A stretch of 21,789 nt of DNA, taken from a virus. The position numbers and the translations under genes are program-made. Below the pieces are notes generated by a model that did no database searches, was not told the DNA's origin, and saw nothing but the letters and a program-made list of their open reading frames with translations. The stretch is from UHGV virus genome UHGV-1607642; one strand, given 5' to 3'. This document shows, in pieces, positions 1,517-10,264 of the stretch (its first letter is position 1; the number at the start of each line of letters is the position of its first letter).

Positions 1517-3076
1517 TTACTCTCTATCCAAAACAGTGAAATCGAATGTGCTGCCAACCGGCAAGACCCCCTCGGCAAACCCAGGCGTCGTGTCGATAAT
1601 GTGTTTCCGCTCATATGAATGCGACATGAGGTATTTGTTGCTCACGTCGATGAAGTCGGTAATAAAGCACACGTTAGCCTGATTTTTCTTGGCTCGTAAG
1701 CCACGACCGACACGCTGTCTCATTTCAACTTCTGCTTTCCCGCCACCACCCAGAATCACCGCGCCTACGCTTGGAACGTCGACACCAACATCCAGAATGG
1801 TTGAACCAATGAGAACATCTATCTTGCCTGCCGCCAGACTATTAAGTTTTGCTTGTCGGGTAGTCTGGTTTGATTCTCCGTAGATGAAATCGACCTTGAG
1901 GCCACTCTCTTTCATCATTTCCATCAAGATCTGACCATGACGCTTCAGACGAACCAATGTCATACAGTTCAGACCGTGACTCTTGTACATTAGCGCTTCA
2001 CGCACAATAGCTTCGTTGCGGCCCAGATTATAGACGATGCCTAACTGATAGGCTTTCTGGTAAGCCGTGCTCATTCCAACCCGAAAATTCAGGTGTTTTG
2101 AAGCAAGTTCGGCTCTAATCCGCGCCTCATCTGGAGTGTACGCGATTTTATGATATAAAAAGTATGGTTTCGCTAAAATACCTCTGTCGATCAAATATTT
2201 CTCCGTTACTTTTATCTCGATGCGACCCGCAACGGCCATGAGACGCATATTTGCTTCAGTCGAGTCCTTCATGAACGGCGTAGCTGTCAGCGCCAGACGG
2301 TAGTCGGCATTGATGCACAACCGGGCGATGTCGTAGAAGTTAGAACCAGATGATTCGTGTGCCTCTTCCAGAATCAGCAGAGAAACGCTGGACAGGAAGC
2401 GTTTAACCAGTTCCCGGCGCTTCAGGTGGTACTGTTTTTTCTCCGGTGATGCGTCGCGCGGTGGCTCTTCGAGAAAACTGGCCAGGGTCTGCACCGTGGC
2501 AACGTTGATATGGCGCGAGACCTGGAACTCACCCGATCCAATCACCCCAACTCTCTGACCTTTCAGCCACGGCTCGCCATTCTCCGCGCGGTAGTCGATG
2601 GATTTCTGGAAGTTCTCTGCCATCTGGAACATCAGAACCGATCGCGTGGTTAAAAACAGCGTCATACGACCAATGCGAGCAGCAGCCTTACACGCTACGT
2701 TCGATTTACCGCCACCCGTCGCAATCTGGGCAATCATCATCCCTTCGCGCACCAGTGTTTCCACTGTCTGATCCTGATACGCATAGTCCGGGTTATACGG
2801 GAATGGGTTAACTACCGGGTTCGGCTTGCCCAGCGCGGGAGCTTTTTCCTTGCGCACATGCACGCATTTGATGCCAGCTTTCAGAAGGTTGGCTGCAACT
2901 GGCTTCGCAAACCCAGCCGGGAACGCGTTTTTGCTCCAGTTGAACATCGTGCTGGTTCCTTTCCAGTCCCCAGCCTCCACTTCATAGCTCAACATCTCCT
3001 GAACGAGCCGCTTCACGTTGTCATCAGCGCTAGAAATCAGCGCATTGACTGCATTCGATACAATCCGAACTGTCAT
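1517..3076 (-). CDS. SF2 DExH-box helicase family protein (519 aa)
   Basis: Motif I ATGGGKS (Walker A), motif II LILEEAHESSG (DExH), motif III LTATP, motif VI QRVGRGLR, all read directly from the translation. SD AGGAAAGAGG upstream of ATG 3076. Confidence 0.85.
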   Translation of the reverse strand: MTVRIVSNAVNALISSADDNVKRLVQEMLSYEVEAGDWKGTSTMFNWSKNAFPAGFAKPVAANLLKAGIKCVHVRKEKAPALGKPNPVVNPFPYNPDYAYQDQTVETLVREGMMIAQIATGGGKSNVACKAAARIGRMTLFLTTRSVLMFQMAENFQKSIDYRAENGEPWLKGQRVGVIGSGEFQVSRHINVATVQTLASFLEEPPRDASPEKKQYHLKRRELVKRFLSSVSLLILEEAHESSGSNFYDIARLCINADYRLALTATPFMKDSTEANMRLMAVAGRIEIKVTEKYLIDRGILAKPYFLYHKIAYTPDEARIRAELASKHLNFRVGMSTAYQKAYQLGIVYNLGRNEAIVREALMYKSHGLNCMTLVRLKRHGQILMEMMKESGLKVDFIYGESNQTTRQAKLNSLAAGKIDVLIGSTILDVGVDVPSVGAVILGGGGKAEVEMRQRVGRGLRAKKNQANVCFITDFIDVSNKYLMSHSYERKHIIDTTPGFAEGVLPVGSTFDFTVLDRE

Positions 3077-3140: not shown

Positions 3141-3839
3141 ATGGATTGTATCAGAATTATGGGTGTGAAAATTACGATTCTGCAGGTGGAAGTCGCGAAC
3201 CTGCGTCCGAATCCCTGGAATACCAACTCCGTTGGGGCGCAAAACTTCGAAAAACTGAAAGGCTCTATCGAAAAATTGGGCTTTTTTAAGCCAATTCTGG
3301 CGCGGGAGTTGGACGGGGGCATTTTTGAGATCCTCGGTGGTGAACACCGCTGGCGTGCCGCGATGGAGCAGGGCATTTCAACGGTTCCCGTCATCTCCGT
3401 GGGCAAAATTAACGATCTGGTGGCCAAACAGATTTCCCTCGTCGACAACGAGCGCTACGGCGAAGACGATCAGGTCGCTTTGCAGCGCTTAATCGAAGAA
3501 ATCCAGTCTGAAATCGACTACCGGTTGTCCGATATCGCCCCGTATGACGACGAAATGGCGGCAACACTCGCCAAAGCGTCCGTTACCGATCTTGAAGCGC
3601 TGGAAGCGCTCTCCCGTGGCGATGACGAGCCGGTCGATGAGGACAAACGCGAGAAAACCGAGCGAGTCGGCGCTGAACACCAGACGATGCGCTTCAAGGT
3701 GACGTTTGATGCGTCAGATCGCGTCGCCGACACCATCAAAACCATCATCAAAGAGCAGGGAATCAATACCGGTAACGAAATGGAGAACGCCGGGGAAGCC
3801 CTGGTGTGGCTGGTCGACTACTACAAGGAGCGTATGTAA
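3141..3839 (+). CDS. ParB/Srx-like N-terminal domain protein 1 (232 aa)
   Basis: ParB-type motif FEILGGEHRWRAAMEQG followed by an acidic C-terminal half. No clear SD; start could also be ATG 3159. Confidence 0.7.
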   Translation: MDCIRIMGVKITILQVEVANLRPNPWNTNSVGAQNFEKLKGSIEKLGFFKPILARELDGGIFEILGGEHRWRAAMEQGISTVPVISVGKINDLVAKQISLVDNERYGEDDQVALQRLIEEIQSEIDYRLSDIAPYDDEMAATLAKASVTDLEALEALSRGDDEPVDEDKREKTERVGAEHQTMRFKVTFDASDRVADTIKTIIKEQGINTGNEMENAGEALVWLVDYYKERM

Positions 3840-4507
3840 TGACCAAAAACTTTGAAATCGTCTATCGAAACCCGGCAGAACTCATCCCGTATGAGATGAA
3901 CGCCAAAAAACATGACGAACAGCAGATCCGCGATCTGGCGGCCGCCATCAAAAAGCGCGGTTTTGACCAGCCGATCACGGTCGACAAGCACGACGTCATC
4001 ATTACTGGCCACGGTCGTCGCGAGGCGGCTCTTCTGGCTGGTCTGGAGCGTGTGCCGGTCATTGTTCGCGACGATCTGAGCGAAGAAGAAGTGAAGGCTA
4101 AGCGTCTGGAAGACAACCGCCTGGCCAGTATTGACTACGACGCCATCAAATTGCAGCAGGAACTGGAATCCCTGGTGCTGGGCGATGTCGAGGTCTTCGG
4201 TTTTGAAGAGCGCGAGCTGAACGTGCTTGTCGGCAGCATGACCGAAGAGATGGAAACCGGCTCTCTGGTGCTCGATCTGGGCGAAGAGACGGAGCGCCAG
4301 AAGGAAGAGCACACCGAGATCAGTCGCGAAGTGGCCTCTGAAGAAGTCCGCGTCATCGACGTATTGGGCTTTAAAACGCTCCCTGCTGGCTCTGCCATTG
4401 TGGTTGGGGATTTGCTTGCCCACATGGAAGAAATCACGGGAGAGAGCGGGGTAGACGCTTTCGTGGCGTATGCGGAGAAAGTTTCTTCTGGGGAGCTGGC
4501 CGCATGA
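3839..4507 (+). CDS. ParB/Srx-like N-terminal domain protein 2 (222 aa)
   Basis: ParB-type motif VIITGHGRREAALLAG with acidic C-terminal half. ATG overlaps the upstream TAA by 1 nt (ATGTAATGA); the track ORF begins further upstream at a non-ATG codon. Confidence 0.7.
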   Translation: MTKNFEIVYRNPAELIPYEMNAKKHDEQQIRDLAAAIKKRGFDQPITVDKHDVIITGHGRREAALLAGLERVPVIVRDDLSEEEVKAKRLEDNRLASIDYDAIKLQQELESLVLGDVEVFGFEERELNVLVGSMTEEMETGSLVLDLGEETERQKEEHTEISREVASEEVRVIDVLGFKTLPAGSAIVVGDLLAHMEEITGESGVDAFVAYAEKVSSGELAA

Positions 4508-5142
4508 GCAAATACACCATCAACGTATCGTTTCAGACCCGCGTGAACAAAACCACGCGCACGCTGGAGATTGCCGAATCGTTCGGTCTTGGCCTGGACG
4601 AAAAAGAGTGGACGCTTTACGACAATCTGGAGCTGGAAGTGAAGCAGGGCGATGTGGTGTACATCACCGGCCAATCCGGTTCCGGTAAATCCGTTGTGCT
4701 GCGCGAGCTGCAACGCCAGATGAAGGATGAAGGGCTTTCTGTAGCCTCCATCGATGACTTTGCCTTCGACAATGAGGTTAACGTCATTGACCAGCTGGGC
4801 AAAACCACCAGCGAAGCGCTGGGGCTGCTGTCTATGGCCGGATTGAATGACGCCTATCTCTTTGTGCGTAAGCCATCCGAGATGTCTGACGGCCAGAAAT
4901 ACCGTCTCAAGATCGCCAAGCTGATCGAGTCCGGCGCGAAAGTCTGGGCTGCCGACGAATTTGGCGCTGTTCTCGACCGTGTAACCGCCCAGGTTGTGGC
5001 GTCGAACCTCCAGCGTGCCGCCCGTAAGGTTGGTGCGACGGTAATGGTGGCGACGACCCACGAAGACCTGAAGAACGCGCTGCGCCCGGATATGCAGATC
5101 ACCAAGCACTACAAAGAACGCGTGAAGGTGGAATATGCCTGA
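4504..5142 (+). CDS. Minimal ABC-type ATPase (212 aa, nucleotide-binding domain only)
   Basis: Walker A GQSGSGKS, signature-like SDGQKYR, Walker B VWAADEF, D-loop GAVLD, H-loop ATTHED. Start overlaps the upstream stop (ATGA); SD GGGAG upstream. No transmembrane partner gene. Confidence 0.75.
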   Translation: MSKYTINVSFQTRVNKTTRTLEIAESFGLGLDEKEWTLYDNLELEVKQGDVVYITGQSGSGKSVVLRELQRQMKDEGLSVASIDDFAFDNEVNVIDQLGKTTSEALGLLSMAGLNDAYLFVRKPSEMSDGQKYRLKIAKLIESGAKVWAADEFGAVLDRVTAQVVASNLQRAARKVGATVMVATTHEDLKNALRPDMQITKHYKERVKVEYA

Positions 5143-5389
5143 TTTGAAGATCGTAGAGCTGAAGCCATCGAAAGAGGCTGACAACAACAACGTTGAAGTC
5201 ATCCGCCTGCTGGAAGAAGCACTCCAGTACGCCAGAGAAGGCAAAAGCCAGAGCCTGGCACTGCTGATGATCAACAACGACGGCAGTGTGCTGGATTGCT
5301 GGCATAACGGTGGGCGTCCATACGTCATGGTTGGGGCGATGGAATCGCTTCGCCTGGACTTCATCAATGCCAATATCGAGCGTAGGTGA
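5135..5389 (+). CDS. Small hypothetical protein (84 aa)
   Basis: ORF overlaps the ATPase stop by 8 nt; SD AAGGTGG upstream. No recognisable motif. Confidence 0.5.
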   Translation: MPDLKIVELKPSKEADNNNVEVIRLLEEALQYAREGKSQSLALLMINNDGSVLDCWHNGGRPYVMVGAMESLRLDFINANIERR

Positions 5390-5394
5390 TCGAC

Positions 5395-6285
5395 ATGACA
5401 GGCATCATCATCAAACGCTACCGCCCGGAAGAGTTCCCGCGTCATCTGGACTTTCTGGAGCGTATGACCGTTACCAAAGGCACGGTTGAAGACTGGCACG
5501 CGCTGAAGTCGCTGCACTACAAGACGGATGGTAAGCCGTTCGCGCCAACGTATTATCGCTGCGAACTGGACGACCGGCTGGTGGGCGTCGTGGTTATGGC
5601 TTACCCGAAACTGCTGCTGGCGCCTCGCCATCGCATGTTTCCTAAGCTGAAGCCAACCACCAATACCACCGTGGCCAACCAGTATTGGGGCCGGTACGTG
5701 AACAACAACTTTGCCGTGATCAGCCGTTCCGTTGTTGACACTCAGTACCGCGGTGTCGGCGTCTCCTATCGAATGATTAACCTGGTTAGCAGGATGCACG
5801 ACCGGCCAATCATCGAGATCCAGTCGTCGATGAGCAAATACAACCCGTTCGCCATGAAAGCAGGGTTCCAGTTCATCCGTCAGGAGCGTCCGAAGAGCTA
5901 TGAGAGTGCGTTGCGCGTCTTCCAGCGTCATTTCCGTTCCGACCCTGGCGACAACGAAGCGATCGTCAAAGAGCTGTTTGCCATGAGTGAGTCTCGCCGT
6001 CGTCGTGCGCTGCGTGATCTGGTCGCTGACTACCACAAGAACAGTTCCCTGGCCAAAGCCGGGCGTAATCGTGGCACGACGATTCAGGACATTGCCGACA
6101 GCCTGGTGGACGAGGCCAGCATCGTGAAGCTGCTCAAGGACATTCACAACCTGAGCTTCACGTCTCCGCTGTATGGCGTGTACCGAAACCCGGACTTTGG
6201 TCGTCAGCTGCCGGACACGCTGCCACTGCTGGCATTCGACAAACAGCCTTTGAATAAACCTCTTGAAATTGCATTACCGGCATAA
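5395..6285 (+). CDS. Hypothetical protein with a GNAT-like acetyltransferase motif (about 296 aa)
   Basis: Start at ATG 5395 with SD AGGTGA 6 nt upstream. Segment AVISRSVVDTQYRGVGVSYRMINL fits the GNAT motif A (R/Q-x-x-G-x-G/A), read by eye; the ~130-aa C-terminal extension is unassigned. Confidence 0.5.
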   Translation: MTGIIIKRYRPEEFPRHLDFLERMTVTKGTVEDWHALKSLHYKTDGKPFAPTYYRCELDDRLVGVVVMAYPKLLLAPRHRMFPKLKPTTNTTVANQYWGRYVNNNFAVISRSVVDTQYRGVGVSYRMINLVSRMHDRPIIEIQSSMSKYNPFAMKAGFQFIRQERPKSYESALRVFQRHFRSDPGDNEAIVKELFAMSESRRRRALRDLVADYHKNSSLAKAGRNRGTTIQDIADSLVDEASIVKLLKDIHNLSFTSPLYGVYRNPDFGRQLPDTLPLLAFDKQPLNKPLEIALPA

Positions 6286-6294
6286 GGATTTGCC

Positions 6295-6561
6295 ATGACG
6301 TTGACCGACAAACAAAAAGACATCATCAAAACCATCAATTTAGGCCATGAGCGTGGGCATCTGCTCGATCTGGACGAGCTGCTTGAAGTGCTGCCGTACA
6401 AAACGACCAAACAGAGTATGCAGTTCTCTATCCGCGCACTGGTGAAAAAGGGGCTGGTGGAGAAAGGAATGTGCCGCCAGCGCGGTGATTCCGGCTACCA
6501 CCGTCGCACGCTGGGACTGACCACGTTAGGTCGTGCCAGAGCCAAATTACTGGTGATGTAA
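6295..6561 (+). CDS. Small winged-helix-like DNA-binding protein (88 aa)
   Basis: ORF with SD AAGGA. Size and basic C-terminal half suggest an HTH/wH regulator; the fold assignment is an inference. Confidence 0.45.
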   Translation: MTLTDKQKDIIKTINLGHERGHLLDLDELLEVLPYKTTKQSMQFSIRALVKKGLVEKGMCRQRGDSGYHRRTLGLTTLGRARAKLLVM

Positions 6562-6586
6562 GTCGGTCTGGGAGCCAGTTTGAGAG

Positions 6587-6641
6587 CCTGCTTCCGTATA
6601 TATAAATACTAAGTGACTTATTAAATATATACGGAAGCAGG
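6587..6641. promoter_or_regulatory. Large perfect inverted repeat (17-bp arms, 21-nt spacer) with a nested TAAGTgACTTA palindrome
   Basis: CCTGCTTCCGTATATAT ... ATATATACGGAAGCAGG. The spacer contains TAAGTGACTTA (6610-6620). No flanking T-tract, so it is not a typical intrinsic terminator. Confidence 0.6.
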
Positions 6642-6756
6642 TTCTGAATACTCCCCAGCCCGGTTTTAAACACCCAGAAAACAAATTGGTTAGGCACTGA
6701 ATTAAACAAGTTGTTTAGGAGCGCAAGGATGCGCTCTGAGTGTTTTAGAGGGATCT

Positions 6757-7398
6757 ATGACTGTAGAAAAAGACGAGAGCAAAACTCGCCTGACACCAGC
6801 TGAGTGGGCAGAAGCCGAAGCGAAGTGGACTTCCGGCGAATACACACTCTCCAGGCTGGAGGAAGAGTACGGCATTCGTCGTGAAACGCTCTCCAGACAT
6901 TTCAAAAAGCGTGGATTAGAGAAAGGCGCGGACTCCGTTGGGAAGATGGTGCGCGAGTCGCTCAAATCCGACGCAGAGCTGCGTGCGAAGGCGCGTGCAG
7001 AGAAAATCGAAGAGCGCCGGACTCGTTACGACGATTGGGCGTTCGCACTCGGTCGTATGGTGATGCATGAGGTGGCCACAGCCAAGAAGGACGGCAGGCC
7101 ACTGGCAGCCATCGAAGATGACCTGAAGAGTCTCCAGCGTGCCAGCGGCACACTCGCTAAGTGCTTCGAAATATCGTCGAAAGCGCTCGGTATGGATCGC
7201 GTGGAGAACGAGGACGACGAAATCCCGAACCTGGTATTTGGCGAACTTACGCCTTCCCAGGTGGCGCAGCTGCGTAAGGAAGATGATGAGCCGGATCTGA
7301 TTGATGACGATCTGCTTGAGTCACTCGAAGAGGAAGCACTGAGCGAAGCTGAGGGCGATTCTGAAGCGTCTGGTGATGAAAGTGATGGGAGCGTCTGA
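6757..7398 (+). CDS. Terminase small subunit (213 aa)
   Basis: Sits immediately upstream of the large terminase. N-terminal HTH-like segment YTLSRLEEEYGIRRETLSRHF and strongly acidic C-terminus. SD AGAGGGA upstream. Confidence 0.7.
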   Translation: MTVEKDESKTRLTPAEWAEAEAKWTSGEYTLSRLEEEYGIRRETLSRHFKKRGLEKGADSVGKMVRESLKSDAELRAKARAEKIEERRTRYDDWAFALGRMVMHEVATAKKDGRPLAAIEDDLKSLQRASGTLAKCFEISSKALGMDRVENEDDEIPNLVFGELTPSQVAQLRKEDDEPDLIDDDLLESLEEEALSEAEGDSEASGDESDGSV

Positions 7399-7400
7399 CT

Positions 7401-8657
7401 ATGGCCATCCCGTCGTCTCTGAGTCTCGTACAGCTGCATTCTGGGCAGATGCAAGTCTTCCAGTCGCCACATCGTTTCAAAGTGGTGTGTGCGGGTCGAC
7501 GCTGGGGTAAATCCCGGTTGTCGATCTCCACCATCATCCGCGCGGCAGCCAAAGAGAAGAAGCAACGTGTCTGGTATGTCGCACCGACTTACCAGATGGC
7601 TCGCCAGATCTTGTGGGATGACCTGCAGGAAGTTCTGCCGCGCAAATGGGTTCGTAAGAAAAACGACACCACGATGACCATCGTGCTGAAGAACGGCTCT
7701 GAAATCGCGCTGAAAGGTGCGGATAAGCCCGATACGCTTCGTGGTGTGGCACTGCACTTTGTGGTGCTCGATGAATTTCAGGATATGAAGCCTGACACCT
7801 GGTACAAGGTACTGCGTCCGACACTGTCCTCCACCCGTGGCGGTGCGCTGATCATCGGTACGCCAAAAGGCTTCTCCGAGTTCCACAAGCTGTGGACTAT
7901 CGGTCAGAACAAAGATTTGCAACGCAAGGGGCAGTGGAAGAGCTGGCAGTTCGTTACGGCCGATTCTCCGTTCGTACCGAGCGCGGAAATCGAAGCAGCG
8001 AAGAACGATATGGACCCTAAATCGTTCGCACAGGAATACCTGGCCAGCTTCGAAAACATGTCCGGACGCGTTTACTACCCGTTCGACCGCAATGTGCATG
8101 TGAAGCCACTCCAGTTCAATCCGAAACTGCCGATCTGGGTTGGTCAGGACTTCAACATCGACCCTATGTCATCGGTCATCCTGCAACCGCAGCCAAATGG
8201 TGAACTGTGGGCTGTGGACGAATTGGTGTTGTTCTCTTCTAACACGGCTGAAGTGTGTGACGAGCTGGAGCGTCGATACTGGCGCTGGAAATCTCAGGTC
8301 ACTATCTTTCCTGACCCGGCAGGTGCGTATCGCCAGCACGCACGCGGCGAATCTGACGTCGACATCTTCAAAGAGAAAGGTTTCCTTCGAGTCGACTATC
8401 CGAAGAAACACCCACCGATCGCAGACCGTGTGAACGCCGTGAACCGCATGTTAATGAGCGCCTCGGGCGAAACACGGTTGTACGTCGATCCGAAGTGCAA
8501 ACACTTAATCGACTCACTGGGGAAGGTGATCTACAAGCCAGGCTCACGCGATATGGATAAGACAGGCGGCGTCGAGCACAGTGCGGATGCGTTGGGGTAT
8601 CCGGTTCATCGTAGGTATCCAGTGAAAAATCGTGTTATTCTTGGTGGATCCAGATAA
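7401..8657 (+). CDS. Terminase large subunit (418 aa)
   Basis: Walker A VVCAGRRWGKS and Walker B HFVVLDEF in the N-terminal ATPase; C-terminal nuclease-like acidic motifs (WVGQDFN, IFPDPAG, HSADALG). SD GGGAG upstream. Confidence 0.9.
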   Translation: MAIPSSLSLVQLHSGQMQVFQSPHRFKVVCAGRRWGKSRLSISTIIRAAAKEKKQRVWYVAPTYQMARQILWDDLQEVLPRKWVRKKNDTTMTIVLKNGSEIALKGADKPDTLRGVALHFVVLDEFQDMKPDTWYKVLRPTLSSTRGGALIIGTPKGFSEFHKLWTIGQNKDLQRKGQWKSWQFVTADSPFVPSAEIEAAKNDMDPKSFAQEYLASFENMSGRVYYPFDRNVHVKPLQFNPKLPIWVGQDFNIDPMSSVILQPQPNGELWAVDELVLFSSNTAEVCDELERRYWRWKSQVTIFPDPAGAYRQHARGESDVDIFKEKGFLRVDYPKKHPPIADRVNAVNRMLMSASGETRLYVDPKCKHLIDSLGKVIYKPGSRDMDKTGGVEHSADALGYPVHRRYPVKNRVILGGSR

Positions 8658-8674: not shown

Positions 8675-10264
8675 ATGGAAGAAAGGCAAATGGAATTGAC
8701 TGATAAGCAAATCAAAGACCTTGTGGCACGACGCCACCCTGAATATGAGAAGAAAAAAGAACATTGGGACTTCCTCGCCAGCACCTACGCTGGCGGGCGT
8801 GCCTGGTTCAACGACAATATCTTCCGTTACTTCAAAGAGGGCGATCAGGAGTTCAAAGAGCGCCTGGAACGCGCTTATCGCTTCAACCATACGCGCGAAG
8901 TGGTAAACCTCATCAACAAATACCTCTTCAAAGAGGTCATTCACCGCAACACTGATGAAGCACCGGAGCAGATCCGCAATTTCTGGAAGCGAGCCACGCG
9001 CCAGAACGCCTCCATCGATGCGTTTATGGCGGCTATCGATCTGCAATCATCCATTTATGGCCGTATTTGGGTTGTCGTGGATAGCACGATGAACGTCGAT
9101 GTTGAGTCTGTTGCAGACGAGAAGAAAAATGATGCGCGTGCCTACGCTTACTGGATTTCGCCACAGCAGCTGCTTGATGTTGCCTGGGATGAAGATGGCA
9201 ATATGTTGTGGGCGTTGATTGTTGAAATCGCGCGCGACGACGAAGATCCGTTCACATCAACCGGGCAGGAATACCAGCGTTACCGTCTGTGGACGCAAAA
9301 CGAGTGGTATCTGTTCCGTGAAGAAGTGAAGAAAGGTTCAGGGAATAGTGGTCGTCGTCAGGCCAAAGTCGTTCTGGAGGATAGTGGCAATCATAATCTT
9401 GGGGTGGTGCCGGTGTTTCCGGTGGATTGCATTGGTGAAAGCGATTCTCCGTATTTTAGCCCGTCGTTAATTGACGATATCGCCTATCTTGACCGCGCCG
9501 TGGCCAACTACCTGTCGAACCTTGACGCGATTATTCAGGATCAGACATTCAGCCAGTTAGCGATTCCGGTTCAGTCCTTGCTGCCGGGCGATGAAAACCA
9601 CACCAAAGTGCTCGAAATGGGGACAAAACGTGTCTTCACCTTCGATTCTGAGAGCGGTAATCAGCCATTCTATCTGTCTCCAGACCCGAAACAGGCTCAG
9701 ATGATCATCACCACGATTAAGACGGTGATTAATGAGATCTACCATTCCGTTGGTGTGGCTGGTGAGCGAACCAAGCAGGATAACGCGCAGGGTATCGACA
9801 ACTCTTCGGGGGCAGCGAAGATGTACGACTTCCAACGTATTAACAGTCTGTTGGTGACAAAAGCAGAGCGCCTCGAAAGGGCAGAACGCCAAATGATGGA
9901 GTTGGCTGCGAAATGGATGGGCATCGAATTGGATGAAGACCACTCTCTGATCGCTTACCCGGAGAGTTTCGATATTCGTGGTCTGACTGACGAATTTGCC
10001 GTCGCTGAGAAATTGTCGCTGTTACAGGCGCCTGATTCTGTACGTCGTCATCAGATGGAAATGCTCATAGAAAAGATCTTCCCGAATATTTCCGAAGCGA
10101 TGCAAAAGGAATTTAAAAAAGATCTCTTGAAATTTCCTCTAAAAAATGCTCCTGGCGCCCTTGAAAATAAGTCAGTACTTACTTATGATCGAGATACAGT
10201 CCAAGAAAGCGGACAAGATCAACCCCGAGGGAATGGGGACTCATCTACTCAAGAGACCGAGTGA
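8675..10264 (+). CDS. Portal protein (about 525-529 aa)
   Basis: Large ORF directly after TerL and before the scaffold and capsid genes; assigned by position and size. Start ambiguous: ATG 8675 has no SD, ATG 8690 has AAAGG 3 nt upstream. Confidence 0.7.
   Translation: MEERQMELTDKQIKDLVARRHPEYEKKKEHWDFLASTYAGGRAWFNDNIFRYFKEGDQEFKERLERAYRFNHTREVVNLINKYLFKEVIHRNTDEAPEQIRNFWKRATRQNASIDAFMAAIDLQSSIYGRIWVVVDSTMNVDVESVADEKKNDARAYAYWISPQQLLDVAWDEDGNMLWALIVEIARDDEDPFTSTGQEYQRYRLWTQNEWYLFREEVKKGSGNSGRRQAKVVLEDSGNHNLGVVPVFPVDCIGESDSPYFSPSLIDDIAYLDRAVANYLSNLDAIIQDQTFSQLAIPVQSLLPGDENHTKVLEMGTKRVFTFDSESGNQPFYLSPDPKQAQMIITTIKTVINEIYHSVGVAGERTKQDNAQGIDNSSGAAKMYDFQRINSLLVTKAERLERAERQMMELAAKWMGIELDEDHSLIAYPESFDIRGLTDEFAVAEKLSLLQAPDSVRRHQMEMLIEKIFPNISEAMQKEFKKDLLKFPLKNAPGALENKSVLTYDRDTVQESGQDQPRGNGDSSTQETE
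10168..10185. repeat. TAAGTC-AGTACT-TACTTA element copy (1 mismatch) inside the 3' end of the portal ORF
   Basis: TAAGTCAGTACTTACTTA lies 79 nt upstream of the portal stop codon. Confidence 0.6.

Follow-up and report, generated by a model that had tools for sequence, protein, structure and literature searches.

Proteins in which an ABC-type ATPase is fused to a GNAT acyltransferase domain (COG2401 or 'MK0520' type; PHROG 293, 886 and 11143) have been predicted by Aravind's group, by computational analysis only, to form a phage DNA-base acylation system, and Tenacibaculum phage pT24 is named for this family in the relevant section of PMC7824862, which cites Iyer et al. 2013. The same phage was matched here by tblastn, by using a fused ABC-GNAT protein as the query. 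No experiment, and no functional or DNA-modification data, were found in the literature on the COG2401/ABC-GNAT family, SSU5, Nickievirus and RHEph10. The member described here is encoded by UHGV virus genome UHGV-1607642, analyzed as a stretch of 21,789 nucleotides (the window), which belongs to an SSU5-type phage-plasmid and shares 98.6% identity with Salmonella phage SSU5 within the part covered by that record. Its gene at positions 5395-6285 (the target) had been described in an earlier note, from the sequence alone, as a GNAT-like protein possibly modifying nucleic acids. Both halves of the fused enzymes are homologous to proteins of the window, and the association with ParB-like proteins and the phage context are alike; the window enzyme differs in being split into two genes, in having a variable insertion site between them, and in being accompanied by two ParB paralogues rather than one. 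The idea of DNA acylation is an already published prediction for the family, and the split, two-ParB member is what is new here.

Other described systems share single features with this locus. Mom of phage Mu (PDB 8bv8) is a GNAT-fold enzyme that modifies adenine in DNA. It has no sequence similarity to the target and works alone, whereas the target has both an ABC ATPase and ParB partners. Mom is reported with a diverged cofactor site, while the target keeps a canonical motif A of the coenzyme A (CoA) type. TmcA/NAT10, which makes N4-acetylcytidine in RNA, would follow a common logic, since its GNAT needs an attached NTPase in order to reach a base-paired exocyclic amine; that NTPase, however, is of the helicase type, acts on tRNA or rRNA and has no ParB partner, whereas the window ATPase is of the ABC type, and homology is limited to the GNAT fold. 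The 5mYOX thymine dioxygenases require, on double-stranded DNA, a ParB/Srx protein that has no obvious DNA-binding domain and is encoded beside the DNA-modifying enzyme; activation of the phage DNA-base dioxygenase by ParB-like proteins is experimental (PMC13229309). Compared with these pairs, and with ParB-fused methyltransferases, the catalytic partner in the window is a predicted GNAT with an ABC ATPase. A ParB-acetyltransferase fusion of unknown function has also been shown to bind GTP (bioRxiv 10.1101/2025.10.10.680097).

Homology to a fused ABC-ATPase and GNAT enzyme

Most of the distant members of the target family, reached by profile search in their hundreds, are fused proteins of 450-500 aa in which an ABC ATPase lies ahead of the target-like region. 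The window ATPase aligned over its full length with residues 2-214 of one such fused protein, P0186 (49% identity, E 3e-67), and the target aligned, also over its full length, with residues 213-473 (BLASTP E 9e-15, 26% identity). The motifs HY[KR] and Y-x-[YW]-x-N-P are common to the target and the fused GNAT halves, and PHROG 11143 covers both the ABC and the GNAT half. Judged by these alignments, the target is the detached C-terminal GNAT half of a fused enzyme of the COG2401 type, and the ABC ATPase of the window is the detached N-terminal half of the same enzyme. The partner missed by the earlier note is, by the same homology, this ATPase, which makes up one protein with the target elsewhere. 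The ATPase retains Walker A (GQSGSGKS), the signature (SDGQ), Walker B (VWAADE), the D-loop (AVLD) and the H-switch, and, because all ABC motifs are kept, should dimerise on ATP as other ABC ATPases do. In PHROG 886 and in RefSeq/GenBank the GNAT protein is wrongly named 'ABC transporter ATP-binding subunit', a misleading name that arises because the other half of the fused relatives is an ATPase.

The target is a real, conserved gene. Its ATG at 5395 follows a ribosome-binding site, AGGTGA, at 5384-5389 (5 nt ahead), its stop codon ends at 6285, and its start is supported by database orthologues, which are also 296 aa long. The protein matches PHROG 886 (E 6.6e-165). Homologues with E<=1e-3 number 487 in a set of 5.8 billion proteins, and a profile search of 1.84 billion representatives assigned 973 clusters to the family. 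The 471 related loci found in IMG/VR were near-identical, and diversity came from look-ups of exact proteins and from tblastn searches of a phage collection. PLSDB contains it in 767 plasmids (about 1% of all its entries), 738 of which are typed as non-mobilizable; the carriers include Klebsiella, Escherichia, Enterobacter, Salmonella and Yersinia, the last with 62 records.

The junction between the ABC and GNAT genes was compared in 83 related loci. It measures about 30 bp in 20 of them, about 250 bp, with an 84-aa open reading frame (ORF), in 39, and about 540-550 bp in 22, the other 2 having different junctions. The longest type is filled by an unrelated 183-aa ORF in L001, the only such locus examined. 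At the ABC-GNAT junction of the distant syntenic loci L082 and L083 no homologue of the 84-aa ORF was found. The junction is a hot spot for small inserted ORFs, and the 84-aa ORF is a variable insert rather than a core component. A role of this ORF as a carrier or adaptor subunit was rejected, as it is absent or replaced in about half of the close relatives and in the distant syntenic loci. Junction genes of distant relatives are gp49-like or encode RyR-domain or DUF2829 proteins.

Some distant members (P0160, P0175, P0190 and P0155) show odd architectures: an ABC ATPase interrupted by an intein that has a LAGLIDADG domain, a family-B DNA polymerase joined to the front of ABC-GNAT, perhaps through an artefact of gene calling, and a C-terminal TFIIB repeat in an archaeal member. 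In the streptococcal prophages phiNIH1.1 (L171, 5660-6113) and Javan523 (L174) the ABC gene stops early, and an unannotated 89-aa ORF of phiNIH1.1 (L171, 5783-6052) contains the GNAT motif A YQGVGLG. The ABC-GNAT gene seems to be broken or frameshifted in these prophages. The adjacent 172-aa ParB of phiNIH1.1/Javan is annotated as 'DNA modification methylase'.

Fold and motifs of the target protein

Structure prediction and comparison, proposed earlier as a check, returned a mixed alpha/beta GNAT fold for the modelled target. The segment YRGVGVSYRMINL, which the earlier note had likened to motif A, contains R119-G-V-G122-V-S124 and lies between strand 106-114 and helix 123-134 of the model, and R119 and G122 are invariant in an alignment of 43 homologues. 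Being placed on the β4-loop-α3 element and carrying these invariant residues, the segment is assigned as GNAT motif A, as had been suggested. The family pattern is R-[GA]-x-G-[VIL]-[SAG], the last position being S, A or G across the family; the fused homologues have the canonical RGIGLG, whereas the motif of the target ends in Ser and not in Gly or Ala. A motif-B-like sequence, NPFAxKAGF, follows strand 139-144 and is the equivalent of motif B.

A GNAT call for the target from its own sequence alone is not justified. In Pfam the match to Acetyltransf_10 stayed far below threshold (E 0.1, 13 bits against a cut-off of 23.6 bits), nothing significant was found in NCBIfam or PADLOC, and sequence and profile searches of the PDB gave chance matches only (AlkD and a myosin chimera). 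Three relatives score above the threshold of curated GNAT models: P0155 (21.5 on Acetyltransf_1, cut-off 20.7), Pmp13_0048 (27.4) and Nonlabens gp24 (37.4). As the score of the target itself is below the threshold, its membership rests on the fold and on transitive homology. From its intact CoA-type motifs, the protein is predicted to bind acyl-CoA and to transfer the acyl group. With a net charge of +15 and an isoelectric point (pI) of 9.8, it is the most basic enzyme of the cassette.

The region of about 130 aa that follows motif A had been described as an unassigned tail. It is present; comparison with relatives and with the model, however, resolves it into a clade-specific helical insert and a conserved terminal strand rather than an appended domain. 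The insert covers residues ~165-255 (helices ~169-254 in the model) and is missing from short family members. The strand, at 259-264 of the model, goes with the invariant residues Y260, G261, N265 and P266, and its motif Y-x-[YW]-x-N-P (~258-266) also ends the fused homologues aligned over the full length. The short fused members, of about 365 aa, lack both this helical stretch and a second insert at ~70-100, so that the target has two extra insertions with respect to them, and they still end in an aromatic-x-aromatic strand. The terminal strand presumably completes the GNAT sheet.

ParB-like partners

Two ParB/Srx-fold proteins are encoded ahead of the ATPase. ParB1 is recognized by Pfam ParB_N (E 1.5e-13) and PHROG 723 (E 1.4e-85), has the box II sequence GGEHRWRAA at aa 67, and is akin to the ParB N-terminal domain of ParB-ABC-GNAT triple fusions (E 9e-10). 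ParB2 has a helical C-terminal half. The triple fusions (ParB_N-ABC-GNAT), found as five cluster representatives, provide a Rosetta-stone link of the enzyme to ParB. In tblastn searches with a fused protein, a ParB gene was located directly upstream of ABC-GNAT in Pasteurella phage Pmp13, Leptospira phage LE3, the Gordonia phages Jace, AnClar and Mariokart, Arthrobacter phage EastWest, and the Streptococcus phages phiNIH1.1/Javan. The ParBs of these unrelated phages are related to each other, and are akin to ParB2 and ParB1 of the window. The window ParBs also match ParB modules of phage DNA methyltransferases (PHROG 498, E 7.7e-33; PADLOC MTase_II, E 7e-18).

A role of the two ParBs in plasmid partition was considered and rejected, there being no ParA and the cassette being kept in integrated prophages and virulent phages. 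The ParB2 orthologue of Pseudomonas phage nickie (gp158; L169, 4298-4990) is misnamed 'DNA methyltransferase' in RefSeq.

Conservation beside packaging genes

The target is a core gene of lytic and temperate phages. The order helicase, ParB, ParB, ABC, (variable ORFs), GNAT, small basic protein or winged helix-turn-helix (wHTH) protein, TerS, TerL and portal is kept in loci whose target homologue is 40-45% identical, namely two proteobacterial prophages, phages of Rhizobium, and Pseudomonas phage nickie. Unrelated phages from six bacterial phyla share the succession of ParB, ABC-GNAT and terminase; among their hosts are Pasteurella, Leptospira, Gordonia and Streptococcus. The fused gene of archaeal proviruses (Bathyarchaeia, Nitrososphaerota and relatives) is located right after TerL, often overlapping it, and 15 of the 27 large upstream neighbours match Terminase_6N. 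Exceptions to terminase proximity include Nonlabens phage P12024S, where the gene is in the replication module, Tenacibaculum phage pT24 and Arthrobacter phage EastWest.

Neighbouring genes for acyl donors and tailoring

In several phages the family gene has, as direct neighbours, genes for enzymes of acyl-group synthesis or tailoring. In Gordonia phage Jace the ParB and ABC-GNAT genes are directly followed by an aspartate decarboxylase, PanD (Asp_decarbox, E 2e-33), and by a fragment of a family III CoA-transferase (CoA_transf_3, E 2e-8), encoded by gp87-gp88 (L178, 5092-6203). Aspartate decarboxylase makes beta-alanine, and by their domain matches the two genes look like a self-contained route to beta-alanyl-CoA. 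A PurN-like Formyl_trans_N protein is encoded beside ABC-GNAT in Gordonia phages AnClar (E 5e-10) and Mariokart (E 2e-8) and in a Porphyromonas phage (E 4e-11). The family gene adjoins Amidoligase_2 and GGACT genes in a Heliorestis prophage, and an ASCH-domain gene in Streptococcus phiNIH1.1. The Porphyromonas phage resembles Mu, its left end carrying repressor and transposase, and its ABC-GNAT and formyltransferase genes are the last two at the right end; phage Mu carries com and mom at its right end. These neighbours fit phage-specific acyl-CoA donors (acetyl, beta-alanyl, perhaps glycyl) and amine adducts that are later capped, a pattern which, by analogy, would be in the style of phage DNA hypermodification pathways.

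Organization of the cassette

The features of the window are listed in Table 1. Of the junctions between the six genes at 3141-6561, two are overlaps (4 and 8 nt), two are gaps (5 and 9 nt) and one is a single base common to both genes (3839), and neither a sigma-70-like promoter nor a plus-strand terminator was matched within this interval. Since the genes overlap or abut, and no internal promoter or terminator was matched, they are read as one translationally coupled six-gene operon.

Table 1. Features of the window around the target gene, with the evidence for each assignment
Feature	Position	Strand	Evidence or remark
Helicase	1517-3076	-	Divergent from the cassette
ParB1, ParB/Srx NTP-binding fold, 232 aa	3141-3839	+	Pfam ParB_N, PHROG 723, box II
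ParB2, second ParB/Srx fold, 222 aa from ATG 3839	3839-4507	+	Box II GHGRREAA
ABC-type ATPase, 212 aa, without membrane domain	4504-5142	+	Pfam ABC_tran, E 4.9e-13
84-aa ORF, PHROG 796	5135-5389	+	PHROG 796, E 1.2e-46
Target, predicted GNAT-fold acyltransferase, 296 aa, pI 9.8	5395-6285	+	
GNAT motif A, YRGVGVSYRMINL	5746-5784	+	aa 118-130 of the target, β4-α3 loop
88-aa basic protein, pI 10.1	6295-6561	+	PHROG 900, E 4.9e-49
24-nt inverted repeat	6580-6648	unstranded	Repeat search of the window
TerS-like gene	6757-7398	+	
TerL	7401-8657	+	
Portal	8675-10264	+	

The last gene of the operon codes for an 88-aa protein with weak matches only (LexA_DNA_bind, Lrs14 and CARF-wHTH), which is probably a winged helix. 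It is kept in the distant syntenic loci L082 (E 2.5e-18) and L083 (E 3.9e-9), and across the phage supergroup its gene is conserved as the one that follows GNAT. In the 195-bp gap between cassette and TerS-like gene there is an inverted repeat of 24 nt, 17 nt of which are perfect, with a 21-nt spacer; as RNA it has a folding energy of -43.3 kcal/mol (z -7.9). An identical repeat occurs in 20 related loci, and the GenBank records of SSU5 and Cyrano start and end at window position ~6623, within its loop. Its possible roles are those of a terminator lacking a T-run, an operator bound by the 88-aa wHTH protein, a site for ParB loading, or a packaging site. A 670-aa open reading frame on the minus strand (4135-6147) spans, in antisense, the ATPase gene, the 84-aa ORF and most of the GNAT gene; no sign that it is a gene was seen, and it seems to result from coding-strand composition.

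Discussion

Of the readings considered, transfer of an acyl group to DNA is the one best supported by the context described above. The strongly basic charge of the target also speaks for it, as does the rank of Mom-type proteins among the closest viral structure models. In the form preferred here, a late-expressed acyl-CoA transferase, gated by ATP and ParB, would mark phage DNA before packaging; a probability of about 0.45, slightly less than even, is given to it. Late in infection, NTP-gated ParB dimers and an ATP-gated ABC dimer would keep the basic GNAT on phage DNA after replication and make a base accessible, in parallel with the NTPase of TmcA, which serves its GNAT on tRNA. The GNAT would then move an acyl group from acyl-CoA to an exocyclic amine of this base, before the DNA is packaged. 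Host acetyl-CoA would be the simplest donor in SSU5, as this phage has no donor genes, and a phage-made donor, such as beta-alanyl-CoA, may be used elsewhere. The acyl mark might protect the DNA from host nucleases at the next infection, or tag it for packaging. A wider proposal can be put forward more tentatively, the odds being against it: SSU5-type phage-plasmids and many tailed viruses of bacteria and archaea may write an undescribed N-acyl mark on DNA just before packaging, acetyl in SSU5 and beta-alanyl, glycyl or formyl-aminoacyl elsewhere, by a writer gated by ABC-ATP and ParB-CTP/GTP. N4-acylcytosine and N6-acyladenine are conceivable forms of the mark, with linked ASCH-type proteins as its possible readers or erasers.

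Several observations weigh against DNA-directed acylation. DNA is suggested as the acceptor by the context only, and no report of a modified base was found in the literature, neither for SSU5-type phages nor for other members of the family. The SSU5 cassette contains no donor-synthesis or tailoring gene. The earlier note had counted on co-operonic ParB-like DNA binders: two ParB-fold proteins are indeed encoded in the operon, whereas binding to DNA is not established for them, and the model of ParB2 shows no confident DNA-binding helix-turn-helix or other DNA-binding domain. ParB is not adjacent in most archaeal loci, in Nonlabens phage P12024S and in Tenacibaculum phage pT24. The likeness to Mom, also raised earlier, is real for the shared fold and, according to the structure comparison, does not go beyond it. 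In the PDB comparison Mom takes 6th place, and among viral structure models a Mom homologue comes 3rd, no better than generic GNATs, including those that acetylate proteins or small molecules. Long 'Endonuclease-like' proteins of Myoviridae are also among the best viral-model matches, and some of them are suspected to be Mom-nuclease fusions. Finally, the strictly syntenic position of the target as a core gene beside the terminase would also suit a role directed to packaging or to a protein.

The protein-directed role is unlikely, and would have an ABC- and ParB-assisted GNAT acylate terminase, portal, capsid or a host nucleoid protein, and thereby tune packaging or host takeover in the manner of other phage GNATs. 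It is favoured by the closest PDB structures, which are mostly protein N-terminal or lysine acetyltransferases (Naa10, Ard1, RimI and Gcn5), by the tight linkage to terminase in both bacteria and archaea, and by the status of the target as a core syntenic gene and not an accessory one; acetylation of host RNA polymerase by phage GNATs is also on record (PMC7824862). Rather less probable is an accessory function in packaging, in which ParB, ABC and GNAT would help the terminase to recognize or process its packaging site, for instance by loading close to pac or cos, the GNAT acting locally, on DNA or protein, or only as a structural element, and not protecting the genome as a whole. The module stands just before TerS/TerL in many phages and just after TerL in archaeal proviruses, with genes that often overlap; the strong inverted repeat separates cassette and TerS, GenBank record ends map to it, and in Gordonia phage AnClar the ParB-like gene spans the record ends, the annotation mentioning virion cohesive ends. 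This placement is, however, not shared by Nonlabens P12024S, whose member is part of the replication module, nor by pT24 and EastWest; moreover, conservation of motifs of the catalytic type speaks for an active enzyme, and the linked donor and tailoring enzymes are hard to fit to a purely structural role.

An acyltransferase acting on RNA is improbable, whether as an NTPase-coupled tRNA cytidine acetyltransferase resembling TmcA or as an aminoacyl-tRNA toxin of the TacT/AtaT type, the latter being a possibility raised by the earlier note. The ATPase is of the ABC and not of the TmcA helicase type, no TmcA-type Pfam match (NAT10_TcmA_helicase) was obtained for the target or the ATPase, and no tRNA-binding domain was found. 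The toxins TacT, AtaT and KacT have about 160-180 aa and an adjacent antitoxin of the ribbon-helix-helix type, whereas the target has 296 aa, belongs to a six-gene operon and has no antitoxin-like partner upstream. A toxin structure (7byy) ranked only 44 against the target model, PADLOC gave no match, and temperate and lytic phages, virulent ones included, keep the gene as part of their syntenic core; the ParB fusions point to DNA. A subunit of an ABC transporter, as the database names have it, can be considered refuted: the label is inherited (PHROG 886, GenBank/RefSeq) from fused relatives, ABC motifs are absent from the target, whose fold is that of a GNAT, and the cassette contains no permease or membrane gene. 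To some explanation other than all of these a small chance is left, below that of a packaging accessory and above that of an enzyme acting on RNA.

The names 'ABC transporter ATP-binding subunit' and 'DNA methyltransferase' are wrong for these genes. If DNA is the acceptor, N-acyl bases derived from acyl-CoA would be a new chemical class of phage DNA modification, and the system would be the first for acyl-CoA-dependent acylation of DNA bases, in which ParB-fold proteins and ABC ATPases would serve as gatekeepers for the modifying enzyme. Study would be easiest with the SSU5 version, which dispenses with special donor genes and whose hosts are E. coli, Salmonella and Klebsiella. SSU5-type phage-plasmids spread resistance genes, and a mark evading restriction, if it exists, would therefore bear on their host range.

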